A DNA stretch of 64,000 nt, taken from the IMG/VR virus record IMGVR_UViG_3300046694_000223, positions 1-64,000 of that record. The stretch is one strand, 5' to 3'. The notes beneath the pieces are model-generated. The model ran no database searches. It saw nothing but the letters and a program-made list of their open reading frames with translations, and was not told where the DNA came from. Positions 28,254 through 63,965 of this stretch are shown here, in pieces; the first letter of the stretch is position 1, and each line of letters opens with the position of its first letter. This DNA is from a virus. Position numbers and translations under genes: made by a program.

Positions 28254-29059
28254 CTACTTTTCAAATTTCTCTTCTTGCTCGTTGTGTGCCAACATCTGTT
28301 CAATAGCAGTTTTAAGTTGTTTAAGTTCTCCCTCCTCAAGAAACATCTGAGTCATTTGATATTCTCCATCAAAATTTTGAATTCCGTCTCTTCTGAGGGA
28401 GAGCACGTATTTTCTTGTTGATTTGTCTTTTAGTTTTTGTTCAACCAAGAATAAGTTATCTTTATTAGAACTGAAATTTAACTTTCCTTTTTTATATGTA
28501 TGGTTATTCCCTCCTGTTTTCTCAAGGGTAAGTAGGGTTTTTCTAATCGATTAAGTTTTAAATTTATACTAAACATAACATTTCTCCTCTCGTTTCTTCA
28601 TCAAATATTGATATTATCAAAAATTACAGCGATCATTTTTTCTACTCTCTAACAACCCATTCACCAATAGAGAAATAACCTTCATAATCTTGATAATAGC
28701 TCGGATTTTTATATTTACTCTGTAATTCATATGCAAGAGTTCTTTTACATTTAATAGCCGAAATTTCAGAAGAAAAAATACCTCTAATCTCTTTGTGTGT
28801 ATCATCTATCCACTTATAAACGATATGCACTTTATTCATAAAACACCTCTTTCATTTGTTATTTTTTATATTCATTATTAAACTTGTGAATCAATTCAAG
28901 CCATGTATTATCTTCGATAAAAAATATATCTTGATTTTTATACACACAATTAATGTTAGTAATTAGTTGCCCAAGTCTTAAATCAGGGAATTCACTCCAG
29001 CATTCTGCTAAGGCGGTGCATATTCTTTCTATTCTTTCTATTCTTTCTGGATCTCGCAT
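28254..29059 (-). CDS. Cluster of three small hypothetical genes (ending at 28254, 28642 and 28859)
   Basis: Each has an RBS; MRDPERI...PDLRLGQL is a recurrent small phage protein pattern. Confidence 0.55.
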
Positions 29060-29115
29060 TCAATATCATCTCCTTTTTTATTTTGATTGATTTATATGTA
29101 TCAAGTAGGCATAGC

Positions 29116-29412
29116 CTACTCGGTAATAAACTTATTTAGCGCTGCTTCTAGTTCATCCTCATCGTCAGTCTCTATCTTCTCTAGTTGAACTTTTTGATCA
29201 ATTGTTACTGCAACTTCACTATTTTCTTCTTCGACCAATACCTGACTTCCAAGTAATTGTGGAACTCTTCCTTTGTGACCAAACAGAAATTGTCTTAATG
29301 CTTCTCTGAGGATATCGCTCTCATCATAATACGAAGGTAAGTTACTAAGGGCCTTCTTTATGTCTTCATCCTTTTTGGGTCTCAGCCTAGCCATTACAAC
29401 TTTTACCCCCAT
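29116..29412 (-). CDS. ParR-like ribbon-helix-helix adaptor
   Basis: ARLR..KDEDIKKAL...SDILREALRQF with acidic tail; overlaps the stop of the actin-like gene. Confidence 0.65.
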   Translation of the reverse strand: MGVKVVMARLRPKKDEDIKKALSNLPSYYDESDILREALRQFLFGHKGRVPQLLGSQVLVEEENSEVAVTIDQKVQLEKIETDDEDELEAALNKFITE

Positions 29413-30362
29413 AATCTCACCCCAACATTCTCGTACCCTTCAATCTGAGCAAGTTGACCAAACAACATCTTATTGTTTAGAGTGAGCAGATCGTATATGT
29501 GCTTTGATGCGCCACCACCGATAAAATAATGGTCAAAGTTGATATTTAATCCTTCAACTTCATTTTGAATTTGAATGGCTAATGCCTGGAACGCTTTTCT
29601 AATTAAAGGTTTGATATTGTATCCCTCATACGATCCTGATCTTACGTACTGATCCAGCTCATAAATCGATGGAGATTTCCCCACATGTTCTATGAGGTAT
29701 TTTCTAAGCAACTTATAAGCCTTTTCAACACCCAATAATAGGCTAGTTGATTCTTTCATGATGTCTAACTTATCAAGTCCCAATAAATTCAGTGTGTAGA
29801 AACCTATATCTATAACGAGTATCTTTTTTCTTGCAACAAATGTGTTAATGAGTTTGCCTTGTTTATCTAAAAGAAAACTCATTGCAATCCCATATCCCTG
29901 CGGATATATTTTATATTTATTTATATTGAGATTTATATCGTTTATTTCTCGATTTCCTTTTTTAATACTATATGTACTTTGGTCTGATAAGGAATCAAGC
30001 AACTTCTCCATGTCTACCATTTGTTTAAAGTAGAACAAAACAGGTAATCCAGTGATCATATTAAATGGTTTGCTTTTGTTGAGATAACCAAGTGCAGTTT
30101 TCAGTAGAACGTCTGAAGTCATCGCTTCACTTTTATTGTCCTTAAGCGAGAAATACTTGATGTCGCTATAATGTTGTGCCAATTCTCCAATAAATAGCTC
30201 ATCATTGTATGAGAAGTAATTAGATTTGATATTCTGCTCAAACATGGGTTGTGGTTCACCAGTTATTGAAGGTTGAAGATAGACCGTCTTGCCTTTCTTG
30301 GCCTTCGTGTAGCTAAATCCTAAATCGATCACGCTTAGTTCAGGTGTTACAATTAAAGACAT
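29403..30362 (-). CDS. parM: ParM/StbA-family actin-like ATPase
   Basis: IDLGFSYTK (phosphate 1), TGLP, PQG, VIDIGFYT (phosphate 2), IGGGA (adenosine). Confidence 0.88.
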   Translation of the reverse strand: MSLIVTPELSVIDLGFSYTKAKKGKTVYLQPSITGEPQPMFEQNIKSNYFSYNDELFIGELAQHYSDIKYFSLKDNKSEAMTSDVLLKTALGYLNKSKPFNMITGLPVLFYFKQMVDMEKLLDSLSDQSTYSIKKGNREINDINLNINKYKIYPQGYGIAMSFLLDKQGKLINTFVARKKILVIDIGFYTLNLLGLDKLDIMKESTSLLLGVEKAYKLLRKYLIEHVGKSPSIYELDQYVRSGSYEGYNIKPLIRKAFQALAIQIQNEVEGLNINFDHYFIGGGASKHIYDLLTLNNKMLFGQLAQIEGYENVGVRLWG

Positions 30363-30435
30363 GATATAACCTCCTCATATGCTTAATGCAAAGTAAATCA
30401 TTTTGATGTACTTGTCATACAAACCTTATAAGTTG

Positions 30436-30444
30436 ATTATATCA
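30436..30444 (-). promoter_or_regulatory. Extended -10 promoter for parM-parR
   Basis: Minus strand TGATATAAT about 75 bp upstream of parM. Confidence 0.5.
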
Positions 30445-30527
30445 TGTATATGGTTATCTGTATATATTTATTCATTAAATATTATTCCTCATGAAATGGT
30501 TCTTTTAATTAGTAATAACTTGGGACT

Positions 30528-32000: not shown

Positions 32001-32249
32001 CCAATAACATTATACATTAAAATTAACGAATTCAAAACTCAGAAACAATCTTATAAAACTAACGTTTTACGTAAATAAATTATTTATCACTTCCACACCA
32101 TCTTCTTCGACAGTGAAGACGCTGCAAATTTTATCATCGATCCTCATATCATAAATGTATTCCTTGCTATAGCTTCCAATGTAATTAAAGGAGAGCTTGA
32201 TTTTTACATTGCCGATATTAATCCTTCCCTTCTTAATGAAATCTGGATT

Positions 32250-33026
32250 TTAAGACAATCTTGATAAACCGAACCGTTCAATGTCATCACGAGTAAGAAC
32301 GATTCCTTCCGAATTAGCATTATATGTTCCCGTATCGTCTTTAATCTTTTCTGCTGCCACATCTAAAGCTTCTTGTAGCTCACCAATAATATGCCGTGCA
32401 TTAGAATAAGCTTCGTCATGTAGGTCATCCGTTGCATTTTCTAAAATACTCTCTGCGTCAAACGAGGCACTACACGTTGATGTTCCGTAGATTTTAATAT
32501 TCAGAATTTGTTCAATTATATCTTCTTCAGTATCATCTTTCATATTATCATCTAACCAATATTCAATTTCTTCTGCTAAAGAATCCGTATCAATGTATTT
32601 GTTCCAATCATCTACAAATATCATCTTGTATTTATTGAGTGATTCCGAATATGATATCTTATTTGCCTTTTCCCAATTGGCTTTCTCGATTTGCCAAGAT
32701 GCTACGCCCCGTTCTTCTTTACTGCGTTCACATTGACATTCAACCCATCTCTTATCGACCAGATCATTACAATGTTTACAACGCTTACGGACACCGTTGT
32801 AGCAACTTGAACACCACACAATAGATTCTTTATTAAAAGGAAACCCACTACCTCCCAAGCTCTTACCGTTTACGGTCAATCCATATCTTGCATCATAGAT
32901 ATGAATTCCAAGCCCTTTACAATCATTACAAATTTCTTCGTTTAATTTCATATCTTTCTTTAGTTTGAAATCAACGTGTAAATCTATGTATTCTGTTTTA
33001 ATATGATCCTCAATATTCTCGCTCAT
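32250..33026 (-). CDS. Hypothetical protein with DnaJ-like zinc-finger motifs
   Basis: CNDCKGLG, CSSCYNG, CKHC. Confidence 0.6.
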   Translation of the reverse strand: MSENIEDHIKTEYIDLHVDFKLKKDMKLNEEICNDCKGLGIHIYDARYGLTVNGKSLGGSGFPFNKESIVWCSSCYNGVRKRCKHCNDLVDKRWVECQCERSKEERGVASWQIEKANWEKANKISYSESLNKYKMIFVDDWNKYIDTDSLAEEIEYWLDDNMKDDTEEDIIEQILNIKIYGTSTCSASFDAESILENATDDLHDEAYSNARHIIGELQEALDVAAEKIKDDTGTYNANSEGIVLTRDDIERFGLSRLS

Positions 33027-33062
33027 TTTCTTTTCTCCTCTTTTAATGAAATTTATGTTTTA

Positions 33063-33479
33063 TCAGATTATTTCTTTATTACAAAACAAACTTTCAAACC
33101 AGTTAGAATTTAGTTCAAATAAGAACTCCTTTGTACTACTTAAAATTCTCCAGATATTATTTTGTTCTTCTTCTTCAATTTCTTTAATTAAATAATAGTC
33201 ATAATGCTGCTTTAACCATCCCCATGTGTGATCAACGAATTTGCCATCTTTGGTTTTATTAATAAAGTGAACAACGATTGCATTCTTATCACTCTTATCT
33301 ACAGCAACACAAGAGTAGACTTTCTCAGCCTTTCTCTCATGAACCTTTTGTACTGCATTGAGATGACATCTTTGAGTGTAATTTATCTCCCCAAGATCAA
33401 ATTGTGATGAGTCTAATTTTTCAAAATTTGAAATGACGTATTGGTATATTTTATTTTTGACTCGTTTTTCTGCCTTCAT
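33063..33479 (-). CDS. Hypothetical protein
   Basis: ORF track; coupled to the upstream gene. Confidence 0.6.
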   Translation of the reverse strand: MKAEKRVKNKIYQYVISNFEKLDSSQFDLGEINYTQRCHLNAVQKVHERKAEKVYSCVAVDKSDKNAIVVHFINKTKDGKFVDHTWGWLKQHYDYYLIKEIEEEEQNNIWRILSSTKEFLFELNSNWFESLFCNKEII

Positions 33480-35279: not shown

Positions 35280-35347
35280 GGCAAGTCTTCATAAAAGTAA
35301 AGTTTTATCAACTTTTAGCAATGAAAATACCCAATGTTAGTGCGGTT

Positions 35348-36137: not shown

Positions 36138-37901
36138 TTATGATTTAATGGCACTCCTTAGTTTGGTCATAATTTCTTCAACGACCTCACCTGTTCCACA
36201 TTCATATGTCCATTCGTCTTCAAATTTCTTTTCTATCCAATTTAAAACTTTAGATGCTCTTCCTAGTTTTTTCTCTAATGATTCATAGATATTTATGTAT
36301 TCATGTTTTGTATGGACTCCCCAACTCTGCATATAGCCAATATTTTCAAATATCATTGAATCGATCTCGTCTCTAAATACAGAAGGTTTTACTGGAGTTT
36401 TTAGTCCAATTGAGACAAACAATTCATGCTCCGTCGTTAAGTTATCATCATTCATAATGGCTCCCCTTTATTCATGAAATTCAGTTTTCATCATCCATTT
36501 CTCTTATAACTTCATTGTGCAATCTGTCTAATTCCTCTTCTTCGCATTTAATACTACATAATGGTTTCCATAGCCAAAAATTATATAATTTTGTTATCCT
36601 GCCGCATACTTCGCAAAACACGCCCTCATCCTTTAAGTGAATTAACAATTAAAATACTTCTCCTTTCCAAATAAAAGTCTCATTTGATTAAAACTCTTCA
36701 GTCACATCGTACACGTTTCTCCTTAAAATGACGATGTTCTTTATCTTCGGATTATTTTGAAGTGTCCTCAAACGAGTGACAACTTCATCGTAATTGTTCC
36801 AATCCATATATTTGGGCTCATACTCTCCAGACGAAGACCTTTTGAGATACTGAATTTTATAGTGTGACTTCAAATGTGTTCCTGTTTCGTAACTCATCAA
36901 AGTGCTCCTCTCTTAATTCAATTCAATTTCTTTAATGCTTAACTCAATAGGATATCTGTCGTACTCTTCATATTCATAACTCGATCTTTCCCAGTACCAA
37001 ACAGTCTCGGTCTTTATCTTGCTTTTATCACCTAGTAGAAATTCTTCCTTTTCATTATGTTCCTCTGGATCAACAATGTTTTCAGTTTTATTGATATGTA
37101 GTAGTCGATCTTCAAAATCTTGATCAGCATTATTCTTGTCACTAAAATATTTTTCGTAGGCGGGATAACCCATATAATCGATTTGCTCAACCTTATAAAT
37201 CATTATCATATGTATAAATCCTCCTCTAATCTATTTTGTACTAACTTCAATCTCTCTTTGTAACATGTCTCTAACTTCACGAAGCTCTGATTGATCTTTT
37301 TTGAGATTGTTGATGTGATAGACAATTTCTTTAGTTTGTTCCAGTTTCTCATAGTCTTTAATTTTAAATTGCAATGAAAATAATTTATCCTCAATAGTCT
37401 GAAATAATGTTGTTCTTTGTCCGTTTGTCAATTCCATTTAACTTCTCCTTTCTGATAAAAGCAGCCTTTTAACGTAAGTCTAAATATTTTACATAGCCCA
37501 CAATATCATTGTCAGACATGTATTTGCTTCCGATTTTCTTTGCAAATTTGATTTCTGCTATATTTTCAGTTTCGCTTAAATCAGCAGCAAACAAATGCCA
37601 ATCATCGTTTAACCTAAGCTCTGTTCGTCCACGCTTTTCCAGTCGTTGCCAAAGATTCATCCTATATTTCTCCTTCCCATGTTTTCATTGCATCTTTGTA
37701 TTCAACTCCCATATTGCCAGACAATAAAAACAATAATTCAAACTCATTATCTACAAAGTAAGATTGATTCCTTTCCGTATTCATCAATTGATAGTAGTTG
37801 TTTTGGAATTTGGGATGTATTTTTAATTCAGCATCAAATATTTCTCCCACAACATCTTTGTACCAATGACCATCTTTTGCGCTTATTATTTTTATTATCA
37901 T
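36138..37901 (-). CDS. Run of small hypothetical genes (36138-36455, about 36483-36650, 36688-36900, 36913-37209, 37231-37437, 37469-37660, 37662-37901)
   Basis: Co-oriented short ORFs, most with a GGAG-type RBS. Confidence 0.6.
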
Positions 37902-38101: not shown

Positions 38102-38415
38102 ATGGGAGACCTCCTTGGAATCAATTTTATTACATTTATTTATATATGTATATATTTATTTATTAAATCAATTTTGAATCATTTTTAAAACAAAACATAG
38201 TTTTCGTTTGGTTTAATCGGTTGCCACACCTTTAATGATATTCAGTTCGTTTTTGAGTTGAAGAATTTCATCATCTTTCTCTTTTAGTTCCTTCTGGTAA
38301 TATTCAATTTCACATCCGATACATTGACTGTAGATGTACGCTGGTTCTATTTGGTGTCTTTTACATACTTTAGTTGTCATCTTTAATCTCCTTATGAAAT
38401 AGATATTTGATTTGG

Positions 38416-40192
38416 TTAATTAACTTTAATTGTAATTTCAAAATGATGCTTTTCATTTGGTTCAACCAATCCATCTAATAAATCATTTGGATAGATCTGA
38501 TATAGTCCTTTATTGAAAACAGATTTCTCAAATTTGCTCGGTACTCTTCCAGTGATATTCTTAAAATCCTCCTTGGTAACATCAAAACAAAATGACTCAT
38601 GGTCTCCACTCGATATTCCATTGAATTGATATGTTTTTTCTTTCATAATATCCATCCTTTCTTGATAAAACAGGTATTTCAAACGATATTGCTATGCTTT
38701 TCAAGAAAAGCTTTTGCCTCATCTAGCTTTTTTTGAAGCTCAATCTCTTCTTTTTCATTTTTCAATTGATTTCTTTTGACTACATTTTCTTCAGCTTTGC
38801 TTTCAAGGTCGTTATATTGATCTTGATCATAAAGGAGCGATAGAGGAATGAATTTATCAAAGTATTCATCTCCCCACCCGTTTATGTAGTGACTCACTTT
38901 GATGTTAAGACCTTTGTAAACAGCATCAACACTGGTGATTTCATAGTACTTATTATCGATATCTCCATAAAAAGAAATTATACTTTCAATTACTTTCTCA
39001 ATTCTATTGTGATGCTTATGATAAAATTCTATAATTTCTTGATTAATCATCTACTCCGCTCCTTTATAAATTTTAATGAAACTCGCCTTTCGTGATAATA
39101 TTCATATATAATTATCTGCGATATACAACCCATTCTCTGCAATTCAGTTTATTCTGTGCTTCTTCTTGTGTGACCGATCTTCCAGATCCATCAGCATATA
39201 TAACTCTTATTTTTCCCCATCCCTCACTATCTACAGCACTATCCCAAGAGACCAACATGTGTCCAAGGATACGACTAAATACGAATTCACACCCATCAAT
39301 ATCATGAATCTGAAATCCATCTAACTCTGTCATTGGTTATGTCTCCTTCATGATTTCTTTTTTAAACAACAATATTATAATATTTACACTCATGCACAAC
39401 TTTCCGATATTCATCTACTTGGTAATAATCATCATTCTTTTCCATATCAATAACCGTATTCTCTTTATCTCCAATCTCAACCGTGAATCTCAGGTTGAAA
39501 TATTGAATCACTCTACATGGATATGTATAAACCACTTTCCCTAAATCAACAGCACGTTTGATTTTATAATCAATCTCTTCATATGTATCGCACTTCATTG
39601 TACTAACTGGACACAACTCCATATATTTATCTCTTACATATTGGCTAATTTTCATAAGTTCCCTCCAAAGTGTTAAAATGTTGAGCGACAATCTCATCGT
39701 GTTGTCCCTGATCATAAGCCATTTTATAATGATGTTCTCTGATTGTGTCGAAAGAATTTGACCAGAATAAACGAACAATGACATTAGTCTTCAGTCTCCG
39801 AAAATATTTAATCATTTAATAATCGCTCCTCCAGTGATATTTACAAAATCTCCATTACGATAAAGCTTGATTGGTCTGTTGTTATCATCTTCTTGATACT
39901 TAACGAGTTCTTCATATGTATTATTTGTGGGCTTAAAACTCAAACCATCTCTTGTTGTGTATTCATGCTTACCATCGACAATAAAACTTGTGCATCTTCG
40001 TTCATCATTTTCTCCCCAACATAGTGAAAGGATTGCCTGGATATCTGAGTTGAGTTTCTGATTTGCTTTGGATTCTTTTTTAATATGTATCGTCTCCTTA
40101 GAAATAAAATAAAGTACAGGCGTGTTTCTTAACCTGTACTCATCATAACATATATTATTATGTTTGTATATATATTTATTTATTAAATTCAT
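38416..40192 (-). CDS. Run of small hypothetical genes (38416-38646, 38679-39050, 39112-39333, 39362-39655, 39812-40192)
   Basis: Co-oriented ORFs; starts adjusted to RBS or stop overlap. Confidence 0.6.
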
Positions 40193-40999: not shown

Positions 41000-41524
41000 C
41001 TATTTGCCCGTATGACCAAACCCGCCCGATCCTCGTTCTGTTTCGTCTAGTTCATCAACTTCGACAAATTTAACTGGTGGAACCTTGGCAACGACTCCTT
41101 GAGCAATGCGTTCTCCGTGCTTAACAGTAAATGACTCTTGCCCGTGGTTGATAAGAAGTACTTTAACTTCCCCTCGAAAATCGCTATCCACTGTTCCGGG
41201 AGTATTTAGCACCGTAATTCCATACTTATAAGCCAATCCGCTTCTTGGGCGAATCTGAAGCTCTTTGTTAAGCGGAATTGCAAAAGAAAGTCCTGTTGGA
41301 ATCAGTGCTCGTTGTCCTGGTTTAAGTATAATGGGTTCGCCCTCAATTGCTGCGTGGAAATCAAATCCGGCTGCTCCATTGCTTTGATATGATGGGATAG
41401 TCGCCAGTTCACTGAGTTTTTTTACTTTAATATTAGTAGTAAGATGCAATCTAACCCATTCACGCTGCATATCCTCATTCATAATCACTTCTTCTTGAAA
41501 TGGTTGTTTTATCATGTCTGTCAT
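41000..41524 (-). CDS. dut: Trimeric dUTPase
   Basis: AGFDF, RPRSG, GTVDSDFRGE, RIAQ and RGSGGFGHTG motifs. Confidence 0.96.
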   Translation of the reverse strand: MTDMIKQPFQEEVIMNEDMQREWVRLHLTTNIKVKKLSELATIPSYQSNGAAGFDFHAAIEGEPIILKPGQRALIPTGLSFAIPLNKELQIRPRSGLAYKYGITVLNTPGTVDSDFRGEVKVLLINHGQESFTVKHGERIAQGVVAKVPPVKFVEVDELDETERGSGGFGHTGK

Positions 41525-48614: not shown

Positions 48615-50083
48615 TACACCAACTCTGATTTCTTCTTATAATTAACAACGATTTCAACATAGTCGCCATCTTGTAATTGATAGAAATGGTTTCGGTGATA
48701 CATTGCACCATCAATTCCCTCTAATAAATCCGAAGAGTTCTCCAGATTATTATTTTCGTCTTTAATATACCATCGTTCGCTTTGTTCGACTAAAGTTCCT
48801 TTTATGATAATATTATTCAACCTACGCACCCTTTCTTGATAAAATATTATTTTTATTAATTATTTTTTACTCTTGGAATCCTTCATTGTAAAACTGTAAA
48901 AACATTTGCGATAAGCTCAACAACGTTTCTTTTTTAATCTCTGCTACTTTCTCTCCATCAATAATGAAAGAAACTGTTTTTGGATCAATGGATTCAAGCA
49001 TATATTCTGCAAACGAAAGTGGTGTACGACCTTCTGAGTTTAGATTCTCTTTGTCCATAGTGTAGATACAAATTGCTTTCTTCGTGAATGTTGTCATTTA
49101 TTTATTCTCCTATTTTCATATTTTTATTAATTATTCAATACCTTACATCTGCAACCTCAATCATCTCTCCCACTCTCAGCACATTGCCTTGATCAAAGAA
49201 TTTATCCATCGCATATTTAACAGCCATCTCTTCCATCTGTCCAATATCAATCTCTTCTTCATCCGAAGAAACCTCCAGACAGTCACTCGCATCAACGAAT
49301 ACATTAAAATTAAATTTACTATCCAACACTCCACTATCTTTATATGTAGCAAGTTCTACAGTAAACAGAATTCCCGTATCCACTCTACTCCTCCTTTCCC
49401 ATTTGATCATAATAAATTCTCATATCAAATTCTCTCCAGGCTTCATACCAAACTTTTTCATCTAAAGCATCCATCTTTTTAAATTCCTTTGCTCCAATAA
49501 AATCTCTGAGCCTCTTCTTCACATAAACATCTTCATGTAATTGAGATTCATTATCTGTTCCAACATCACTTTTGAAACAATCGTATAATGCATCTCCCAA
49601 ACTTATGTATGTTTTATTCAACTCTTCTTAATAACACCTCCATATTCTCCGACCTCATAACCATCTGGAAGATCAACGATGTCCCACTGAGATAGGATAG
49701 CATCTAGTCTGTTACCCAATACTTTACCAAATGCTCCACTTTCATCAAAAAAGTGTACTGATCCGCCGAACATAGAATATTCAAGTGTTCCAAGAGTCCC
49801 ATCTTCTTTGTGCTTAAGAATTGTCTTCAACTTCTAACCTCCTATATTATCATTATATTTATTATTTAAATATTTGTCAACATGTTTCGTAATCAATTAT
49901 GTAATTGCCATCTTCGCTAAAATATAATTCACTTGTCGCCACAAACACACATTTACCATCATGTGAAACCGGAGCGATATTATCAAACATTCTAAAGCAA
50001 TCACCTTGTTTTAGATTATAAAATAGTGTTGGCTCCCATTTACCATTGACCAGTTTTTGAGTTGTTCTGATTACTCTACTCAC
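48614..50083 (-). CDS. Run of small hypothetical genes (48614, 48867, 49135, 49385, 49618, 49877)
   Basis: Co-oriented short ORFs. Confidence 0.6.
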
Positions 50084-50490
50084 TTCAAAAACTTCTCAAT
50101 CTCATTAATTTCAAGCTCAACCTTTTTGTCGTCAGATAATAGTTGATCCAGTTTGACTTCCATTGCTTTTAGCTTTGTTTCTTCTTCTTTCTTACCAAGA
50201 ATATTAAGTTTTGATTTAAGATCAGCAATCCAATCCATAACATTGTATCCGCTAAGATTATAATCCTCTAACACACCTAGTTCATTTGCCGAAATAGCAT
50301 AAGAATTAAGTTTAACCATTAACAATAGAATCTGTTCCTTGCTAAGAACATTGATATTATGTCTAATGCCATCAATTTCAATAGAACAATTAGTGACTGG
50401 AGTAAACTTCTGCAACTTACCAACTTGCTTCTTTTTGTCTTCAATCTGCTTCTTAAGTTCTAGAATTTTTTGATCATTGTTATTTGCCAT
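50080..50490 (-). CDS. Hypothetical helical protein coupled to the upstream gene
   Basis: ATG after ggagg. Confidence 0.6.
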   Translation of the reverse strand: MANNNDQKILELKKQIEDKKKQVGKLQKFTPVTNCSIEIDGIRHNINVLSKEQILLLMVKLNSYAISANELGVLEDYNLSGYNVMDWIADLKSKLNILGKKEEETKLKAMEVKLDQLLSDDKKVELEINEIEKFLK

Positions 50491-50491
50491 C

Positions 50492-51616
50492 TTAACCAAT
50501 CCTCCGATATAGTTTTCCATTTTCTAAATACTCGTTCTTGTACATTGGTGAATAAAGTTCATAAACAGTGTGGATATCACCAATATAAATTCTCTCATAT
50601 TCACGATTGGTAGCAACATAGTTACCATCTTTGTAGAACTGGCTTGTATTTATATCATAGTGAACTCGTTCAGTCTTATCTGGTTCAATATATAGGTCAA
50701 CAACACTTCCCCAGTGGGTATCTTTGAATTCTTTGTTTTTAATATATTCCTCAAAATCACTCAATGAATAAAGCATCCACTCGTCTTTTGACTTATCTCT
50801 ATGAGAATATTCAGTCTGTCTTTCTACCCAATCAAACCATTCAGCATAATCCTCTGCACATTCGCTTGAAACAACTTCGATGAATCTATCTCCTAGTGAC
50901 TTGATTGTTGATAATGTTTTATACTTCTCTCCATGAGTATATTCTGATTCTTTCACAAAGAAATGATGCTTCCCCTTTGAAATGTTGTGATAGACATATG
51001 TATACTGCGGAGAACTCCAGTAACCACTCGATTTACCCGTTAAAATCTGTTCAGACTTAGTATCCTTCAGATCGAATCTGCCCATGTAAATCCACTCTTG
51101 ATTATCTTTAGATTTATAAGTAGCCCCAATAATCAAATCTTTAGCTTTTACAAAATTCTTCTCATGTAGAATTTTATTGAATGAGCTTATCTCTTGGTAG
51201 TCTGGAGATTCTACGGGTAGTAAAACCAATTCCTTTCCATCCCAAGCATAAACGAACTCCCCTTCGAGTCCTTTACCTTTAATTGAGTTTGCATTTTCCA
51301 GGATATAAAGTAAGTTCTCGATAGTTATCTCAAATTCGAAATTGCGCTCGTCGTATATTCTGACGTAGGCCTGCCGATGATTCCAATCGGACGTATAATC
51401 TCCTACCTTTTTATTCATCACAAATCCAGACGTAGGTAGATTTATATATTCTTCTGTTTCTATATCTTTATCTATCCAATTAATCCATGATTTTTCTTTT
51501 CGTAGGACTCCTTTATGATCATAATAGATGACATATGCTAACTTGCCTGTGTAAGTATTGTCTCTTTTTTGAAATCCCACCTTTATTTTTTGTGGTATAA
51601 AAATAGAACTTTTCAT
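50492..51616 (-). CDS. Phage hypothetical protein, apparent target of the adjacent endonuclease insertion
   Basis: Start MKSSIFIPQKIKVGFQ after aggaggg RBS. Confidence 0.7.
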   Translation of the reverse strand: MKSSIFIPQKIKVGFQKRDNTYTGKLAYVIYYDHKGVLRKEKSWINWIDKDIETEEYINLPTSGFVMNKKVGDYTSDWNHRQAYVRIYDERNFEFEITIENLLYILENANSIKGKGLEGEFVYAWDGKELVLLPVESPDYQEISSFNKILHEKNFVKAKDLIIGATYKSKDNQEWIYMGRFDLKDTKSEQILTGKSSGYWSSPQYTYVYHNISKGKHHFFVKESEYTHGEKYKTLSTIKSLGDRFIEVVSSECAEDYAEWFDWVERQTEYSHRDKSKDEWMLYSLSDFEEYIKNKEFKDTHWGSVVDLYIEPDKTERVHYDINTSQFYKDGNYVATNREYERIYIGDIHTVYELYSPMYKNEYLENGKLYRRIG

Positions 51617-51626
51617 ATTTGCCCTC

Positions 51627-52394
51627 CTAGTCATTCATTTCTACTTCATAATTTAATAATGCTTGATATAATTTATAAGGAATTTTGCTTTTATACTTCT
51701 CAACGACCTCTTTAATATGTGATTCCTTGCATAACTTATAACAGTCAAAAGCTTCCACTTCTTCGTTCAGCTCAAAAACGCCAATGCAAATTCTTTTGTT
51801 TGTGATTTGGTTTGTGTATTGTACTTTTAATTTATTTGCCCTTGGGTCAAAGTGGACTCCGATAGGATAACTCCCTCTTCTTGTATTGCACTTATTAAGT
51901 ATTGAATTAATATTGTGTGGTACGAATATACATGTCTCCGGCGAATAAACTTTATTGCCTTTGACAAGTAAATCTTTATCTAATTCGAGTTGTTCATTGT
52001 TGATATTGTAATAATTTTCTTCGCACCACTTTGCGAAATTTTGATAGTTGTGCCACTCTTCGCAAACTGTGCAACCTACATAAGATATATTGTTTTTAGT
52101 CTGATCTCCATAACATCTATTTAGCATATTAACCCACTTAGAATAAAACAAAGATTTTTGTCCATTGTATCTTGATTTATATGTCCCGCTGCCCATATAA
52201 CCCACGCCGCATACAAAAGGAAAATATGAATTCTTTATAGAGCCTGATTTTACCTGATTCCATTTCACATTCTTTTCATAACCAAAAATATCTAAAAATT
52301 TAATTCTAATATTTCGTGTATTAGTATAACTAATTATTGTAAATTTACTTCCCTGTGTATTTGTATAAATCTTTTTTTCTCTTTCGTTTAACAT
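51627..52394 (-). CDS. Free-standing homing-endonuclease-like protein (same family as 41558-42262)
   Basis: P.VCGVGY, W.NML.RCY, TVCEEWHNYQNF, LDKD...YSPETCIFVP; AP2-like C-terminus PIGVHF. Confidence 0.75.
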   Translation of the reverse strand: MLNEREKKIYTNTQGSKFTIISYTNTRNIRIKFLDIFGYEKNVKWNQVKSGSIKNSYFPFVCGVGYMGSGTYKSRYNGQKSLFYSKWVNMLNRCYGDQTKNNISYVGCTVCEEWHNYQNFAKWCEENYYNINNEQLELDKDLLVKGNKVYSPETCIFVPHNINSILNKCNTRRGSYPIGVHFDPRANKLKVQYTNQITNKRICIGVFELNEEVEAFDCYKLCKESHIKEVVEKYKSKIPYKLYQALLNYEVEMND

Positions 52395-52405
52395 ATGATT
52401 ATCCT

Positions 52406-52489
52406 CTATGCCAATTTCTTCGTATATGTATCGTTGCGATCCTGGAAACCAACTTTAATCTTTTGTGGTACAAATATATTTGTTTTAAT
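52406..52489 (-). pseudogene. Orphaned 5' fragment (27 codons) of the 50492-51616 gene
   Basis: IKTNIFVPQKIKVGFQDRNDTYTKKLA* versus MKSSIFIPQKIKVGFQKRDNTYTGKLAY. Confidence 0.85.
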
Positions 52490-52531
52490 ATTTATTCACC
52501 CTTTCAATTTTTTCATTTATAGCACATTTAC

Positions 52532-52765
52532 TTAATAGCTCTCCTTCTCATACGAGGCAATTCCTATTTCTCCATTTTCATCAATAAAGGCAATTGCATA
52601 GCAATCAATATCATATCCAGGACTTTCATATCCTCCAACGTAGTCAAAAGTACATTTTGTTTTAAATTTATATCTAACGTCTTCACATAATTGATGTAAA
52701 TTTAACTCATCTTCGTTTTGTTCATGATTCTCAATTATTTCATTGATATAATCTTTGATATTCAT
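52532..52765 (-). CDS. Hypothetical acidic protein
   Basis: ORF with RBS. Confidence 0.55.
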   Translation of the reverse strand: MNIKDYINEIIENHEQNEDELNLHQLCEDVRYKFKTKCTFDYVGGYESPGYDIDCYAIAFIDENGEIGIASYEKESY

Positions 52766-52878
52766 TTTTATATTTCCCTTTCTTTTCTTGATAAAAGTTA
52801 CATTTTATGAGGTTTTATACACTATATATAGATATACTATTAATGTTAAACACTATATATAGTATATAAAATGTATAT

Positions 52879-53196
52879 TTATAGACTAACCAACTTATTT
52901 TCATATTTAAAACCGTCATTGGTCATTATTGGCACTTCTTCCATGAGCACATCTGGCACAAAAGTCAATGCTTCGGCTACAGCGTAGCTTCCATCTGGAT
53001 TTCGTTGTTGCGTAGATACTTGAACCAGACATCCATTGGGTAAATTGCATACTTTAGTTGATTTCATCCATCCTTGAGTTTCAGAACTTGCTTTGCAAAG
53101 TAAGGCAAATGTATCTCCATTTCCCACAACTTTAATATCTGATACTTTTTTCTTTGCGTCCTCAATATTTTCAACTGACAAATTCTTTTCTTCCAT
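52879..53196 (-). CDS. Small phage protein of unknown function
   Basis: KASS..QGWMKSTK...GCLVQVSTQQ.NPDGS..VAEAL.FVP; RBS aaggag. Confidence 0.6.
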   Translation of the reverse strand: MEEKNLSVENIEDAKKKVSDIKVVGNGDTFALLCKASSETQGWMKSTKVCNLPNGCLVQVSTQQRNPDGSYAVAEALTFVPDVLMEEVPIMTNDGFKYENKLVSL

Positions 53197-53247
53197 TGTT
53201 AATCATTCTCCTTATTTTTAATTTGTGAAATGTGCATTTCATCTCAC

Positions 53248-55770
53248 TTACCACCAAATAACTAATTTTATCCAACCATATTCATCGGCTAGTGGATGCA
53301 ACACGGTATTCCATTTTTCTAGAATCATTCTTTGCCAATCATTTGGCTGTATTTTTAATTTCTTATAATCAATTCCTTCTTCTGTTCCAACGTAAATAGA
53401 ATTGGCACTATCGTTACGCACATCTCTTCTAAATACCGCTTTTAATTGATAGTGCCAATAATCGCAATATTCGAATTCTTCTTCACGATAATAAGAACTC
53501 TTTGAAATATCGAATCCCAGTTTTACAAGATCCTTTTCGCAGCCTCTTGTATCAAACCCTAATGAATGTTCGATTATGTTATTTAGTTCAAAATAATCAT
53601 ATCTATTTTCTTCGTTTGACACACTTTTAAGACTTTTTATATCTATTATTGTCTTTCTTTCATCACCGTAATGTAGATTATATTTATTAAATATACTCAT
53701 AAGACCTCCTTTAATTTCCTAATGAAATTTGACATTCATACACTTCAAAAATATTTATATTCTTTATGTTCTTGCTCATAGAAATTTGCAATACGTTTTA
53801 CTGTTTCTGATAGTTCCGATATCTTAATTGGTTCAAACTTAATTTCAGAATTTTTGGTAGGAGAAATAATGGTTGTTGGAGTCAATGATTTTAACCCGTC
53901 ATATAAAGCCAATAACTCTCCATATGAAAAGCGATAGTTATATGTGATTCTGTTATTATCATTTATGTATCCAAATACTTCGCCACTTTCCTTTAGGACT
54001 ATTCCAATCAACGCTAGTTTGCGCTTTATGGTTTCTTTAAATGAATATCCTTCCCCGTATTCATCAAACACAATTTTAACTGGCTGTTCATGGAGGATAT
54101 TCAGAACAACCTCATCTGCATATGTTTCAAAATACAAACCCTTCAAAGTTTTTGGTTGTTTATATTTTCCTTCTTTGAAATCAACTTTTTGAATAACCAC
54201 TTGATTTGGATTTCTTTCAATTCCAATGATCCAAAGCATAATCAGAACTCCTCCATTTCATTTTTAATCTCAGTAATTTTCTTGTTATAATATTTCAATT
54301 TTGATTCTTTTGCTGTTTCAAATTTATCAATAATTCCTTCGCACTGTTTCTTATAGTGTTTTACACATTCTTTCTCATCATTGAAAATATTAAGCGACTC
54401 ACCAGTATAAGAGCGATACCCAGTATTATCATATGGAGCAATTACTTGTGCCAGTGGTTTGCCGTTCTTGCCAAACGGTCTAAAGTGAAATTCGGAATAA
54501 TATACAGTTTTATTACTTGGTAATTCTTCATTGCTTACAACCATAACTTTTGTTGGTTTAACATGACGGATGGGCTGATTGTCAATATCATTAAAACGAT
54601 AATCGCAAATCCAGACTTCTTCACCAATCTTAATTGCCTCTTTGTATTCGGCGTGGTTCAATTAATAAGCCCTCCCCAATTTATAATCATCGGCATGTTC
54701 CCATTGTCGATACCACTCAGAAGCATGAGCCATAAATACATCATTATGTTCCTGGTTATTGTTTACCATCCATGTTTTAGATTCAACTGTATAGTCGCCT
54801 ACATCTAAAGATTCGTATTGTCCATAGTCAACCAGTCTCATTCTGTTTACTTTCCAACGTGTCGTAAAGGGCCAAAACTCTGCTTCAGCTTTTGTTCCCC
54901 CTGTTTTCCAGTTCTCAATTTTACCGTCTAGCAATAGAACATTTGCGTGTAGTTCGTGAGGATATGTATCAGACCAGTGCATTAGTTTCCTCCTTCGAGT
55001 TTTTTAAGCAGTACATCAATTTCCGATTTACAATATACTCTCCAGTTGGGCATATGATCATCAAGCAGCTCAAAATAATTTAGAAACAATTCGACATATG
55101 TAATTGCCAAACTTTTTCTATTGTCGTTTAATCTACCTACCTCATCAATCAATTCGCAGATAAGCAAAGAGTCTCCATCGGACAGAAATTGTCTCTTATG
55201 CTTAATCTCTTTGAGTTGTTTGAGCGTAAATTTCAATTACATTCCCTCCTTTTCTTGATCAAATACGCCTTTTATCCACTGTGTCTTTTACTCCACTCTT
55301 TATAGATATCTTCCCAACAACCATCCGCTCCTTCGGATGACAGATAGTCTGGAATGAGGTATGAATCTTCAATTCCATATTGACCAAGTTCAACTATATA
55401 GTGACCATTAGTTACTTTTTCTTTTACCCATTCTGCATGCTCAATATTTTTCTCTTTATCTGTTAATTTGCTCCACAGGTCATATAGTTCTTGTGCTGTA
55501 TCAATGTAATTCAATCTAAGTTTTGAATTCATGCTTGAGTCTCCTTCCTTATGAAATATATCTTTCACTGTACTTTTACTCATTCGGCGCATAAGACATA
55601 TCTGAATCATATCTTTGATTGGCTTTATCCCAGGCTTCATCATAGTCTAATTCATTCACCTGGATAAACAGATCGATTAGTTGAAGAATGTTTGAATACT
55701 CTTCAGTCAACTCTTCAAATTTTCGTTGCTTTTCTTCGCTTAATTGGTCAAAAGTAATTTCTTTATTCAT
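53248..55770 (-). CDS. Run of hypothetical genes (53248, 53745, 54242, 54662, 54982, 55272-55532, 55576)
   Basis: Co-oriented ORFs with RBS or stop-start coupling. Confidence 0.6.
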
Positions 55771-55820
55771 AAAATATATTGCCTCCTTTCTTTTTATTTC
55801 TCATAAAAGCATTATTTCTT

Positions 55821-56456: not shown

Positions 56457-56509
56457 AATTACACCTCTTTATATATATTTTTATTTGAATTGATAAAACC
56501 ACTATTTCG

Positions 56510-57270
56510 TTATTCTTTTTCAGAATAAAATCCAATTAATTTATAGTGCTCATGATCGCTGTCAATATACTCCCTTTTGATTTCTTCGCTATAAATATCG
56601 AAATCATCTAGTGCTTCAATATACCCCGCAATTCTTCCAGAAATACTATCGTGATATTGATCTCCTTTTACCAAGACTTCTTTTGTGTCAAGATCGAACA
56701 ATGCCTTCTCGTCTTCAAATTCATCATTTACATAAACTACTAACTTCATTTTTAAAACTCCTTTTATTTTTATTTTGATAAAAACTCAATTTCATCAGAT
56801 TATTACCTTCAAAAAACTCAATGTTTTCGCGGTTTTTCTAAATCGAATTCCTTCAGTGTGTCGGCAATTTCATCGCTTGACGCAAAGCTTGGCTTCTTTA
56901 AATCAACTTTTCCACTCAGTAATTTTATGTATTCAACATTTTTATTTGTGATTGACTCTGGTGCTACATAAACTGTCTCATTCTTCAATTCAAGCACTCC
57001 TTAAAGGAATAGGCCTTCCATTATAGAAGACCTATTTATATTTACTAATTACCGTTTGTTATTAGATTGCTGACGCTGCTTCGCGTATTTTGTTAACGTT
57101 GATCCTCCTTTAGCCGTATTCTTCTCTGGCAATACACTCCCAAAGATCAATCCTTGTTTCTTGCAATAAGCTTTTGCTTCATTTTCTACGCCAATTCGAT
57201 CTGTTGCTGTGAATTCCTTGATTACTACACTTGCTCCGCTTTGGGTTGTTGCTAGGCCGTAAAATGTCAT
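56510..57270 (-). CDS. Small hypothetical genes (56510-56749, 57049-57270 and a short ORF between them)
   Basis: ORFs with RBS. Confidence 0.55.
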
Positions 57271-57326: not shown

Positions 57327-58973
57327 TTAAATATTTTCCCGATAATCATCAATGAAAAGTTGCAGTGTTTTGGTGATTTTAAACTTGGGTTTATAAACTT
57401 TCCAGATATTAATGTTGAGCGATCCAATAGCTTCAATCTCTGAAAACACCGGGACAGAATTAAAATATTGCTCATCTGTCTTAAACTTCATTAACTGAAT
57501 CTTATCACAGTCAACCTTCACTGTGTTTGCGGATTTACCCATAAGCTTTTTATCAGAGACGAATAACCCTCTAATGAGAAACTTTCCCTGCTTGAATTTG
57601 TTTCCTGTTATCCGGTAAAACTCATTTAGATAATTGACTAAGTTTTCATTAACATCAGACAAGTTAAACTCTAGATCATAATACAGAGAATCATCTGCTT
57701 CAAAGTTGGTCAATTTTTTGTTCAGTTCATACTGGAGTTTGCCTAGATTGACTTTGAGCAACTGTACTCCTCCAGCACCTGGATGACCTCCTGTATAAAA
57801 AACATTGTCACAGTCAGCAAGTAAATCCAACATTGAGAAATCTTCAAGTCCTCGGAAGCTTCCTGCGTATGCATCTTCGGTGTCGCCTTCACCCAATACA
57901 ATTGCTGGCCTATTAAATGTTCTAGATAGCTCTTGCGCTACAAGCCCCATCATCCCTTTTCCAAGTGATGGATCAACAACGATAATTGTCTTATTTGATT
58001 CGTCTATTGTTGGTTTCAACCGTTGCAAAGCTTCAGCTTGAACCTCCTTACGCTTCTCGTTAGCCTTTACCAACTCTTTAGCCAATCCTTTAATGTCGTC
58101 TGAGTCGTCTACGCACATCAGAAAGTCAATTGCTAACTGAATATTATCGGCTCGTGTAGCAGCCGTTACAGCAGGACTCACGCCGTACAAGAAGTCTGTC
58201 GCAGATAGGTTTAATAGATCATAATTCATTGCTTGAAACAACGCCTTAAGTCCTGCATGATGTAGATTTTTTAATGACTGCTTTGCGTAATATCTATTCT
58301 CTAATTCCAACATAGACATCATATCAGCCATAAGTGCAAATCCGGGCAGATCATCGAGCTTGTTTGAATAATATGTATTCATGTAATCATCAATGACTTG
58401 ACAAACTTTAAAGACCAACAATCCTCCGCAAGCATTTTTATTAGGGTAGGAGCATCCCTCTTGCTGGGGATTGACTAAAATAGCATACGGATTATCTACT
58501 GTAACCGTATGATGGTCGATTATTAAACAGTCAATTCCTTTTGATGATAGTAATTTCATTGTTTCAACGTCATTTGATGAACTGTCTACTGCAATCAGTA
58601 CCTTTGTCGATTCAGGAATTGTTTCAACTAGTCCATTAATATTATGCCCCTCAGAGCGTTCATTGCACACGTAATATACTTCGTCGGTGAAATTAAGTAG
58701 ATACTTATACATTGTCACCAACGAAGTTACACCGTCATAGTCTAGCTAATCAGGGTCGCCAGTAATTGTAATAGGCTCACGGTTCCGAATTGCAAGGATG
58801 ATTCGTGTAGCCAATTCGTTAATATTCTTAAGTAGATAGGAATCACAAATTACATTAGACAGTGGATTCAGGAATTGATCAATGTTTGTGATTCCGTTTA
58901 ATTTTGCAAGCATAGAATATGTATTATCATATGATTCAAATGGAATGACAGGTGTTTTTTGTTTCCATTTCAT
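57327..58973 (-). CDS. recJ: RecJ-like DHH exonuclease (YorK-like) with one in-frame TAG at 58746-58748
   Basis: The two track ORFs share a frame: ITGDPD*LDYDGVTS, then IAVDSS, IIDHH, ADMM, GSFR, GGHPGAGG. Confidence 0.9.
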
Positions 58974-59175: not shown

Positions 59176-59222
59176 TAATATCACCTCCTTGATTTGATAA
59201 AAGATAAGTTTTATCAACTTTT

Positions 59223-60075: not shown

Positions 60076-62072
60076 TTAACTCTCCATAATCATATTTGCT
60101 TCATCAATCAGATCGTCCAGAATATCACGAATCTGGTTCGCTTGCTTATTCCAGCTCTCAATTTGATCATCTGTGAATACCGTGTTGGGATTCTGAAAAA
60201 TTGAGAATAGCAGTGATACATCCATTGGGAATAGTTTTGTTCTAAAGATAAAATTGTTTTCTTCTTGGCTCATATATTTTTGTCTCCTCTCTTTAGAACT
60301 GCTCAACATATGTACTTTCTGGTCTTACACTCCACCATCTTGGTTCATCGACAGTTACGATCTGGCATTCTCCATCATACATTTCTGCCAAAAAGCCGTT
60401 ATCATTCCATACAGTCAGAAACCAATCGTCTTTATCGACATAATCAAGATTTGTTTCAACCGCATACTCTTTGCCTTTAGTAAGACCCCAACTTAGGTGA
60501 TGTTCGGCAGTATATTTAACTACTGTAAATTCTTTTTGTAACATTATTTATTCATTCTCCCTTTTTGTTTTCTTCAATTCTTCAAGATACTTTTCTTGAT
60601 ATTCAATGTCTGTGATAGGAATAACCAATCCCTTTGATCGTTCTTCTAAGTTGAAATTTGTCTCATAATAAATATCGTGTTCGCTTGATTTAAAACTCTT
60701 CATTGTTTCTCCTTGAAACCTCATAACACCGTAACAAAAATTGATATGTCCTAAGCTTTCAAATCCATTTAGTCCACATTCTTCAATGATGTTCTTGTAA
60801 GCAGTCAATACTTCTTTTGCTTTTTTTGAGTTGGCTCTTAGTGAACCATCTTTTTTGAATATTTTTTTATTTTCTTCTTTCGTGATTTCCGAAAGGTCGA
60901 TCTGTAAGTAACTAGAAGCGTGAACCAACAGTGTGATTTTCTCATCTAGCAATTCACTTAGTTTTCCGTAAACCTGTTTCCAATTTGGCAACATATTCAA
61001 ATGCTTCTTAACTGCCAAATCGAAATCCGTACCATTCTTAATCTTAAAATATTGCAAGGTCATTTTTATTTCTCCTCTTAATATATTTTTTATAAAACCC
61101 TTTTCTTCAAAAAATATGTTCTATCCTAACTACGCCACCAATCTTGCTGATCATCTGCATACTCTTCCATGTGATAATACTTTTTGTAATTGTTCCAATC
61201 ATCTAAATCTAGTCCTTGTTGTTTTGCGTCTTCATAATCTTCATCTGAGTATGGTTTAGATGCCTCACTACATAATTCAATGCCTTCTTGAGACATATAT
61301 TCATCAGATATTTTTGTTTTTACCCATTGATCATAAATTCTATTAAGGCATTTTCTCATTCTTTCCAAACTTTCAAGATCATCAAAAACAATTGTCATAT
61401 CATGGCCCGGAATATCTGCGTTACAAGGATGTTTTTCAACGATGTCTTGCGCCCATTCTTCTGTTCCAGTCGCAAAAACAACACTATCTGTGTGTCCAGT
61501 CTCTTCATTAATTCCTGAAAAGATCGCTGTTCTTGATTCATTTGTAGTGCTTTTAATATGATATGTATTCATAATTCGCTCCTTTGTTTATATTTATTTC
61601 TTCATGAAAGTATGTATTTATCATCAATTACAATCCTAGCTTATACCGACCGAACAAACTTTTCTTTGCCATAACTGGCTCATCATCTTTAGTGAGAAAA
61701 ATAACATCAACAATAATGCTTTTAAATTTTCCTCTCTTTTCGGGATCAATCGTGTACATAATGTTGCGTGTTTTTGTTTTAATGTATAGAACTTCATCAT
61801 AATCTTCTTTTACGACTCCATACTCCCACCAAGTAGCAAGTTCTTCGTTTTCGCCTTTATAACTTATTTGAACTAATTGCCCTTTTAGCATGTTATTTTT
61901 CTCTCCTCTTGTTTCAATAAAACTATTCTTTCGTGTGGTCTTAGTTAAGTGAATCAATAATGACTTGAACAAATTCATCCAGCTCGTGTGCAGTTTCAAT
62001 ATCATTGGTTCGTTCAGCAATTTGGTTCAATTTATCAGCTACTGCTATAAGAAATTCATTGTCAGCTTTCAT
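60076..62072 (-). CDS. Run of hypothetical genes (60076, 60293, 60548, 61126, 61628-61891, about 61945-62072)
   Basis: Co-oriented ORFs. Confidence 0.6.
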
Positions 62073-62075
62073 TTA

Positions 62076-62270
62076 CTATCCCCCCTGTTCCTCAATTTCA
62101 ATGGCCTTGTATGAACAACCCAATCTTTCAGCATAAAAACTAGCCTCTGACTTGCTAAAATGTTCAGCATTTTTTGGATCATCGATGACACTACATTCTC
62201 TGCTGCTTAAGTCAAGACTATCAACATATTAACTCTCATTAAAATACAAAACGTAAACTGTAACTGCCAT
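62076..62270 (-). pseudogene. Small gene with an internal in-frame TAA at codon 14
   Basis: GGAGG RBS; MAVTVYVLYFNES*YVDSLDLSSRECSVIDDPKNAEHF...EEQGG*. Confidence 0.6.
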
Positions 62271-62312
62271 TATTTAACCTCCATTCATGATCAAACTCTT
62301 ATTTTACAAAGA

Positions 62313-63965
62313 CTATTCTTCGTACTTCTTCCATGAAATCATATCTCCGCAATCATTTGCAGTTATCTCTATAATGAATTCGCCCTTATATAACATTTTA
62401 ATTTGATCTCTAGTTTCCCACACCAAGCCCTCTTCAGCCTCTTCTGTCCAACAATCAGGATCGCTGTCACTGTTTAAAAATAAAGTTCTACCGTCTGTTA
62501 TTTTTGTTGCGATACCATAGTAAGTACTCATATATTATTCCTCCCTTTCGTATTATCTCGAAATTCTAATTTCATTAGCCTGTGATTACCGACTCATCTT
62601 CTGTCATATGATAAACTGATGAGACATTAACCTTTTCAGGCTTATCGCTCTTACTAATTGTTATTTTCATATCCTCAACTAGCATTCTTCCAACTTCTCT
62701 GGCAATGATTCCGCGCACGTTAGCTTCAAAGTCGCTTCCAAACCCTCTTCCATAAGTTTTACCAACACGATGACTTATGTCTGCTTCAACCAGATGATCA
62801 ATATAGTTTGAATTAATAAGCTTTTTAAATTCATCTTGTACTAACTCTTTGATAATTTCTTGAACATATTCTTTTGTAATTCCCAGCTCATTATGTAAGT
62901 GATTTTTAACTTCTTGATAATTACTCCGATAAACTCCTGGCTCTTTTTTCATTTTTATTTAATCCTCCTTCAAGATATTCCTTAGTCCAATCTACGTATG
63001 TCTCATGGCTTGATACGTGATCCTTGAAAAATATTTTCAGCGCTGAAATAGATTTACCATCACCTTCGATATTATCCAATAGTTTATCCGCTTGTAGAAT
63101 GTGCTCGTATGCTTTTTGAATGTGCGTTGCAATTTCATTCATACTTTTCTACTCCTTATAAAACACAAATTTCATTAGCTATTTACTCTTAAACTGCCTT
63201 GCCATTATCCGATCTAGTTAATGTATCAATTAAGAGTAAACGTTGTTCTTCGCTTAATTTTCTTGATACGAAAGTTTCACCCTTATCGTTAACCATTTCA
63301 ACATGTACGCCATCTTTTGCATTTCCGTAAAAATCAACTCTGCGATTACTGCCCATTGGGATTTGCATTTTTAGTCTCCTTTGGCCCATATTCGACTATA
63401 ATAAATTCGTTTTTCTCTTCTTCAATCGTTCTGTTTCTATACTCACTATCAAGTTCATACCAATAAGGTCTTCCAGGAAACTTTGGCGACATCCAATCAT
63501 AGTTACGTTCTGCCTCACGTTTTGCCTCTTTGGTAATCACTCCATTTGCGGCGCTTATGGATGTATATACGAGCTTTCGTCCATCCCCATCATAAGGAAT
63601 ACCGTTTTTGTAAATCACATAAACCGTTTCATTTTCAATTTTTAGTGACATTTATGGCCTCCTTTTCTTTACGAACTCCAACTTTTATCAAATCATATGT
63701 ATTATGCATTTTTAAGATATGCAACGGTTAATCCTTTTTTCTTTAGTTTGGTAATCGTTCTAATATCATCTGCCCTACTCACAAATTTCTCGTTACTCTT
63801 TCGCTTGCCCTCTTCTTCAAGTGGGAATGTATTGGTTATACCTGAAACAATATCTTTCGCCAACTTGATAACCAAGGATAGCCTCGTATTTTGCAAAACA
63901 AAATGTTCCATAAATCCACCTACGTTTACAACTCCGCAAAGTGAGTAATCACCGACTTCGATCAA
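62313..63965 (-). CDS. Run of hypothetical genes (62313, 62575, 62921, 63189, 63346, 63702; the last may start further upstream)
   Basis: Co-oriented ORFs, most with RBS. Confidence 0.55.

Follow-up and report, generated by a model that had tools for sequence, protein, structure and literature searches.

The window, that is, the whole stretch of DNA analysed here (64,000 nucleotides), comprises bases 1-64000 of IMG/VR record IMGVR_UViG_3300046694_000223, a complete phage genome of 166,580 bp (34% G+C) with direct terminal repeats. The phage is SPbeta-like, its DNA polymerase being 54% identical to YorL of SPbeta, and, because its closest named relatives are Paenibacillus prophages, its host is probably Paenibacillus. 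Between positions 28618 and 63670 the window is occupied by early genes of the minus strand, most of them small and without a known function, which lie in slots delimited by copies of a palindrome, ATRAAA-N6-TTTYAT, composed of two inverted arms around a 6-bp core. The slots have a median length of 784 bp across the early arm, which carries about 75 sites; the array runs on past the window to genome position about 125 kb.

A preliminary description of the window listed 29 such palindromes, and the list stands: all 29 are found where they were reported. The motif is enriched, as 30 copies with at most one mismatch occur in the window, compared with 5.76 ± 2.83 in shuffled sequences, none of 100 shuffles reaching 30. 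The list was nevertheless incomplete, as it overlooked a perfect copy at 28838, a conserved one in the late region at 15766 and another at 41495; since the latter lies within the nucleotide-metabolism block, just upstream of dUTPase, the statement that no copy separates the core genes is not quite right. Spacing is strict: genome-wide there are 27 exact matches with a 6-bp spacer and 0-2 for every other spacer tested (0 to 12), in keeping with the tyrosine-recombinase geometry that had been proposed. A weight matrix retrieves 73 copies in the genome at a score of at least 12, mostly between 28.6 and 125 kb, that is, in the minus-strand early arm. There, 76 of 78 sites are at gene ends, though 69% of the arm is deep coding sequence, and most of them overlap or follow a stop codon, 14-40 bp ahead of the next minus-strand start, which agrees with the reported position between the upstream stop and the next ribosome site. 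The arms are symmetric and only 6 strong plus 2-3 weak positions are conserved in each. The motif is family-wide, being present in SPbeta, phi3T, SPR, Goe13, Geobacillus E3, Perkons, a staphylococcal SPbeta-like phage, Tsamsa and FADO, and it is absent from Lactococcus phage AM1. No description of it was found in the searchable literature (subscription journals and the 1999 SPbeta genome paper fell outside the search), and it is absent from the SPbeta review.

The cores differ from copy to copy, and their distribution in relatives of the phage shows that they behave as ordered addresses. The whole record (G000) was compared with its nearest relative (G014), with which shared blocks are about 80-87% identical, with a more distant one (G001), with G016, with L140 (a Paenibacillus dendrobii prophage) and with L277 and L278. 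Homology blocks with G014 begin and end at sites. Pairing by flanks only gave 27 one-sided cases with this genome, 13 with the left and 14 with the right flank kept, and the core was common in nearly all; at a looser threshold, it was identical in 26, had one mismatch in 5 and was unrelated in 1, again with an even split between left- and right-kept cases. As the core is common whichever flank is kept, cores should also recur where both flanks differ, and they do. G014 has 54 identical cores, 53 of them collinear (null expectation 4.1, maximum 10), all 34 cores common to G001 are collinear, 33 of these with neither 50-bp flank alignable, and the eight shared with L140 are all in order; altogether, 27 of the 29 cores first listed reappear in collinear order in one relative or more. 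Fifteen of the 38 slots between consecutive addresses common to G014 hold wholly non-homologous DNA of differing length, and simple insertion or deletion of a cassette between sites was not seen between G000 and G014. In G002, SPbeta, E3 and Perkons the motif is present and the addresses common with the phage are not above chance. Duplicate cores within one genome were never seen among nine genomes (not all independent), for an expectation of 6.0. The cores are, in short, unique within a genome and kept in order across relatives while the genes between them are replaced.

The comparison of gene junctions with and without a site, the latter serving as a control for gene gain or loss at boundaries in general, indicates that exchange is concentrated at the palindromes. 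Relative to G014, 30 of the 31 junctions with a site are breakpoints, against 45 of 88 without (odds ratio 28.7, p 2e-6); for G001 the figures are 25 of 26 and 40 of 63 (p 0.001). Of the cassette model put forward in the preliminary description, the part that holds is that the sites bound exchangeable blocks of one to few genes, with breakpoints on the sites; insertion, excision and shuffling of cassettes are not supported. That description also asked whether breakpoints between relatives fall in the core, and on this the arms are informative. In five Spbetavirus genomes, 84 one-sided pairs, picked by flank only and including some off-register or redundant ones, showed 6 mismatches in 504 positions of the near arm, on the side of the kept flank, and 44 in 504 of the far arm, with the core exact in 72 pairs. 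The near arm thus follows the gene on the flank that was kept, the far arm follows the incoming one and the core belongs with either, which places the switch at the core; as read from their sequences, crossovers in natural SPbeta-group genomes fall there. In systems such as Cre, lambda Int and XerCD, a pattern of this kind marks strand exchange within a spacer that is checked for homology.

Laboratory crosses provide a second line of evidence, for which we re-read two published studies of the SPbeta group (Garb et al., 10.1101/2021.12.14.472415, File S1; Dragos et al., 10.1101/2020.05.06.055103, Suppl. Table 1). In the three readable SPR x phi3T hybrids of the former, five crossovers lie in 20-42-bp islands of identity that are sites. 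The address tgcata (34-bp island) is where parentage changes in hybrid j16 and in the third hybrid. It changes at tttgtc (42-bp island within about 2.5 kb of 90-92% homology) in j17 and, again, in the third hybrid, and j17 switches back at tattcc, where the parents have 20 bp in common; j17 has therefore received a single slot of SPR, bounded on either side by a site. Of the 649 identity runs, 21 (about 3%, with 2.4% of the bases) contain a site, so that five of at least ten crossovers in these islands gives p about 1e-5, and three of 20, discounting siblings and allowing for unseen crossovers, p about 0.03. These islands were used despite nearby kilobase blocks that are 95-97% identical. No crossover was found in these hybrids at ttctaa, tgttga, tcggtc, tctgta, ctaata, gaatac, tatctc, tcgtac, gatgca, gatcaa, ttcaat or gtttta. 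In the SPbeta x phi3Ts crosses most junctions are in long shared blocks (10.1101/2020.05.06.055103). Junction 7 of that study, described as having 30 bp of homology, is the tgcata site (coordinates calibrated), and the one junction listed there as 'non-homologous' has its SPbeta end on the first base of the tattcc site, which as a site crossover is suggestive only; the flanks of both sites are unrelated between SPbeta and phi3Ts. The tgcata and tattcc addresses thus recur as junctions in both studies, with different phage pairs. Hyb1-3 (phi3Ts-SPbeta) and PP526179 were uninformative, their switches lying within long identical blocks.

All together, these observations lead us to propose that the palindromes are recombination sites, incompatible with one another, that form an ordered set across the genome. 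The arms of one site would be bound by two protomers of a tyrosine-type recombinase, and strands would be exchanged within the 6-bp core, which would have to match that of the partner, as for Cre or XerCD. A crossover at one or two addresses would then let a superinfecting phage trade the genes of the slot or slots with a resident prophage or a co-infecting phage, even where the genes themselves have no homology. Because no core occurs twice in a genome, the array would not delete or invert itself, and because relatives carry the same cores in the same order, slots could be swapped between phages; since the stop codon and the ribosome site stay intact, incoming genes would be expressed from the operon promoter. 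New addresses and occasional slot moves would require rare mismatched-core or illegitimate events, and mismatched events on long time scales are suggested by genes that occupy other addresses in distant relatives. To slot exchange of this Cre/Xer-like kind, dependent on matching cores and carried out between co-infecting phages by a tyrosine recombinase of their own, we give a probability of about 70%. The broader proposal, a natural genome-wide form of recombinase-mediated cassette exchange in which dozens of orthogonal, ordered sites and a dedicated recombinase would let co-infecting phages and prophages trade accessory and anti-defence genes slot by slot, independently of homology, we regard as likely, with slightly less confidence.

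As had been reported, the window encodes no tyrosine recombinase; the genome has three recombinase-fold genes elsewhere, two of them intact-looking and one MrpR-like. The first two, a YopP-like gene at 134818-135885 (minus strand) and a YomM-like gene at 160033-161115 (plus strand; L087:16033-17115) of G000, lie 10 and 35 kb past the last arm site, not next to the array. The YomM-like protein, whose nearest folds are XerA and Cre, is 59-63% identical throughout Spbetavirus, and R182, K213, H284, H310/311 and Y320 are conserved in 85 homologues. Its gene sits in a slot between sites 159798 and 161407, and, as it is 64% identical to that of G014 yet 75-80% to those of more distant phages, it has itself been exchanged. 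The YopP-like protein has a complete catalytic set (R166, K194, H258, R261, H279, Y288) and is only 26-34% identical to those of named phages. Integration is covered by a large serine integrase (window 21582-23075, minus strand), which adjoins RecU as in SPbeta, and therefore both tyrosine recombinases are left without an obvious job; beside this integrase a small open reading frame (23188-23346) is found in the position of SprB. Neither co-occurrence nor arm variants separated the YomM-like from the YopP-like protein. Should a tyrosine recombinase act on the sites, the YomM-like protein would be its somewhat favoured identity, at slightly better than even odds, and the YopP-like protein a weaker though serious candidate.

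Several observations weigh against core-matched exchange by a recombinase. Half of the junctions lacking a site are breakpoints as well, and exchange away from the sites does take place. The genes at 52879-53196 and 55272-55532 lie between other addresses in G001, a rare relocation across an address. The conserved part of each arm, only 6-8 bp, is short beside the 11-13 bp of loxP and dif arms, and the YomM-like protein has Lys at 287 in place of the second catalytic Arg, a substitution that may lower activity. Lactococcus phage AM1 has both recombinases and is without the motif, and Tsamsa and FADO, whose YomM is only about 30% identical, have the motif in unaltered form. As for the crosses, 3 of the 32 SPR x phi3T hybrids were readable, two of these may be siblings, and hybrids were examined at sites only, so that the crossover total is a minimum; at the 'non-homologous' junction, the end in phi3Ts falls 14 bp short of the site. 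In addition, the swap that distinguishes phi3Ts from phi3T (L171/L135, 101429-102694) is bounded by gene ends, not sites, and one contig of run X2, which is a small share (run X1 is the probable source), lacks a three-gene block (50073-52532) whose ends are away from sites. Among the contigs, from which rare forms such as mini-circles would be lost, no joint was found at a site.

The rival that survives best accepts the same addresses and the same exchange of slots, with homology as the driving force: a protein bound to the palindrome or to its A/T tracts would cause a break or stall, and the Sak4-like annealase or RecA would join 18-40 bp of identity, the sites being dedicated linkers rather than targets of site-specific recombination. 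The genome does encode a Sak4-like protein, a RecD-like helicase and RecU, and, as all five laboratory crossovers are in 20-42-bp islands of perfect identity, they cannot place strand exchange within the core. The shuffling of PeSL cassettes in T4-type phages has likewise been ascribed to homologous recombination (PMC2839356). Against this explanation are the persistence of cores between distant genomes whose arms have drifted, the strictly 6-bp spacer, and the use of site islands in spite of the kilobase blocks close by; we consider it unlikely, though it deserves attention.

A second possibility is that the sites are operators, or nucleoid or partition sites, of a dimeric protein of the MrpR/SroF or ParB type, and that breakpoints gather there only because the sites are gene boundaries. 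A dyad with a free spacer in many copies would suit such a protein, and both an MrpR-like gene and an actin-like protein are present. A repeated intergenic element of the same phage family that is bound by a recombinase-fold protein is indeed known, namely SPBRE, the operator of MrpR/SroF in SPbeta and phi3T, of fixed sequence, with about nine copies and bound by a monomer (PMC10516654; 10.1101/2025.11.27.690993). SPBRE is, however, a fixed element of 15-24 bp at early promoters, whereas here the core differs in every copy. Operators give no reason for a position-specific spacer to be kept while both flanks are replaced, or for duplicate spacers to be avoided; site junctions break far more often than site-free ones, SroF binds as a monomer that reads 24 bp, and the laboratory crossovers fall in sites. 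The genome also has a separate repeat, a fixed and oriented 20-bp element with ATTTA-N5-TAAAT in 18 intergenic copies (window 30466, 38154, 40174, 49857 and 57318, and 13 more up to G000 136070). It is common to G014, whose MrpR-like protein is 95% identical, and not to G001, and is probably an SPBRE-like repressor operator or an early promoter element, with the MrpR-like protein as its likely binder. This protein lacks the catalytic set, as does the SPbeta repressor (PMC10516654). The repressor-operator alternative raised earlier thus finds a better candidate in the second repeat, and for the palindromes it is largely refuted and quite improbable.

Equally poor are the prospects of the mechanism that the preliminary description had favoured, integron- or Tn916-like cassettes that leave as circles and can enter any site whatever its core. 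Promoterless units of one to few genes bounded by repeats would fit, as would the rare genes found at different addresses in distant relatives. Tn916-type coupling predicts a common core in at most half of the cases, and an integron-type fixed crossover on one side only. The core is instead common (0-1 mismatch) in 31 of 32 flank-paired cases, on either flank, which contradicts non-matching cores, and the conserved order and the lack of insertion or deletion pairs between G000 and G014 contradict shuffling; an attC-like single-strand stem was also sought, and the sites showed no covariation and weak folding. That the palindromes are mRNA hairpins or processing sites, as might be suggested by inverted arms that follow a stop codon and precede a ribosome site on a single transcribed strand, is scarcely credible, since paired arm positions vary independently (p 0.45 in a test of covariation), G-U pairs are less frequent on the mRNA strand than on its complement, the mean folding energy is -1.8 kcal/mol and the breakpoints would go unexplained.

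Core-matched exchange at ordered sites has partial parallels in several known systems. In the pdif (pXerC/D) sites that bound the dif modules of Acinetobacter plasmids, active pairs have identical spacers (PMC9947245). The resemblance lies in imperfect palindromes with a 6-bp spacer that bound gene modules and in the matching spacer of active pairs; pdif sites, however, are acted on by host XerC/XerD, have two 11-bp arms that differ from each other, number only a handful in a plasmid, and give inversions and fusions within and between plasmids, whereas the phage has one symmetric 6-8-bp arm, about 75 sites, unique ordered cores and allelic replacement between phages. The PeSL cassettes of T4-type phages are also hyperplastic early-region repeats that act as crossover points for small genes of unknown function, in this case near-identical promoter and stem-loop repeats that recombine within a genome and yield mini-circles by homologous recombination (PMC2839356). 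The palindromes, in contrast, have no promoter and no stem, and are built not to match each other. With integrons (IntI, attI, attC) they have in common arrays of small promoterless genes divided by recombination sites, and they differ in having no attC stem, no single entry site, no reordering and cores that must match. Closest in form are the heterospecific lox and FRT sites of recombinase-mediated cassette exchange, with the same arms and incompatible spacers, where the DNA between two matched sites is replaced. Hybrid j17 has exactly this form, although those systems are engineered and use two or three sites only, and we know of no natural genome-wide version. In its working the array is close to pdif modules and to heterospecific lox exchange, and it takes the part that PeSLs have in T4-type phages, but it departs in defining features from each of these families and from integrons and Tn916.

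By what means phages exchange unrelated genes exactly at gene boundaries, and whether dedicated linkers serve for it, is a long-standing question of mosaicism in the modular theory. Here the linkers can be seen in the sequence, each has an address of its own, and they occur in SPbeta, phi3T and SPR, model phages that are routinely crossed, which makes the question directly testable. If true, the proposed mechanism would explain the turnover of accessory genes in SPbeta-like phages with gene order kept, provide a role for the conserved orphan recombinases YomM and YopP, and let the alternative alleles of a slot, for example anti-defence genes, be catalogued; it might also offer genome engineering a recombinase whose natural 18-bp sites are many and orthogonal.

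The individual sites (window coordinates, strand unassigned) illustrate the different degrees to which their surroundings have been kept. In G014, the core is accompanied by a common left flank at 30491..30508 (tggttc, right flank replaced), 38190..38207 (catagt) and 39076..39093 (ctcgcc), and by a common right flank at 15766..15783 (taggaa, a perfect match in the late arm, left flank replaced), 33046..33063 (tttatg, left replaced), 36671..36688 (gtctca), 56778..56795 (actcaa, left replaced) and, in both G014 and G001, 41495..41512 (tggttg, the copy upstream of dUTPase). Site 38665..38682 (caggta, also in G001, G016 and L278) is the left end of a one-gene slot kept whole in G014, of which 39076..39093 is the right end (38665-39093). 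The same core is collinear at 28600..28617 (tattga; G014, G001), 32053..32070 (ctaacg; G014), 32236..32253 (tctgga; L277) and 35291..35308 (gtaaag; G014). The perfect match at 28838..28855 (cacctc) has the same core in G014, where slot 28600-28838 holds unrelated DNA, and both flanks are unrelated at 36474..36491 (ttcagt; G014, L277) and 48839..48856 (tattat; G014, G001).

Identical cores are further found for 37455..37472 (gcagcc; G014, G001, L277), 53225..53242 (tgtgca; G014, L140), 53722..53739 (tttgac; G014, G001, G016, L140), 55258..55275 (tacgcc) and 55551..55568 (tatatc; both in G001, G016 and L140), 55803..55820 (gcatta; G014, G001), 56493..56510 (ccacta; G014, G016), 59197..59214 (gataag; G014, G001), 61604..61621 (gtatgt; G014, G001, L140), 62290..62307 (ctctta; G014), 62558..62575 (ttctaa; G001) and 63158..63175 (cacaaa; G014). 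Loose contig ends of run X2 lie at 59184-59214. Single mismatches are seen at 52791..52808 (gttaca, a perfect match to the motif), in the core at the same position of G001, at 61917..61934 (ctattc), in G014, with the same core in G001, and at 63671..63688 (tccaac), in G014 with both flanks kept, with the same core in L140. Site 38394..38411 (tagata) matches the motif, and its core is absent from the relatives examined.

Some additional features were noted. Lactococcus phage AM1 (L251-L257) has its own enriched palindrome, ATTAT-N3-ATAAT, in 14 copies. An AEP-TOTE primase-domain protein is encoded at the end of the late arm (window 19914-21395, plus strand), with no counterpart in G014 at the DNA level, and the actin-like (ALP/ParM-type) protein (29403-30362, minus strand) sits within an address slot. 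In the recJ-like gene (58973-57327, minus strand), an in-frame stop near 58746 breaks DHH motif I; tblastn matches are split at the same place in G014 and G001, not in G016, and, as the split is identical in the former two, the stop is unlikely to be a sequencing error.

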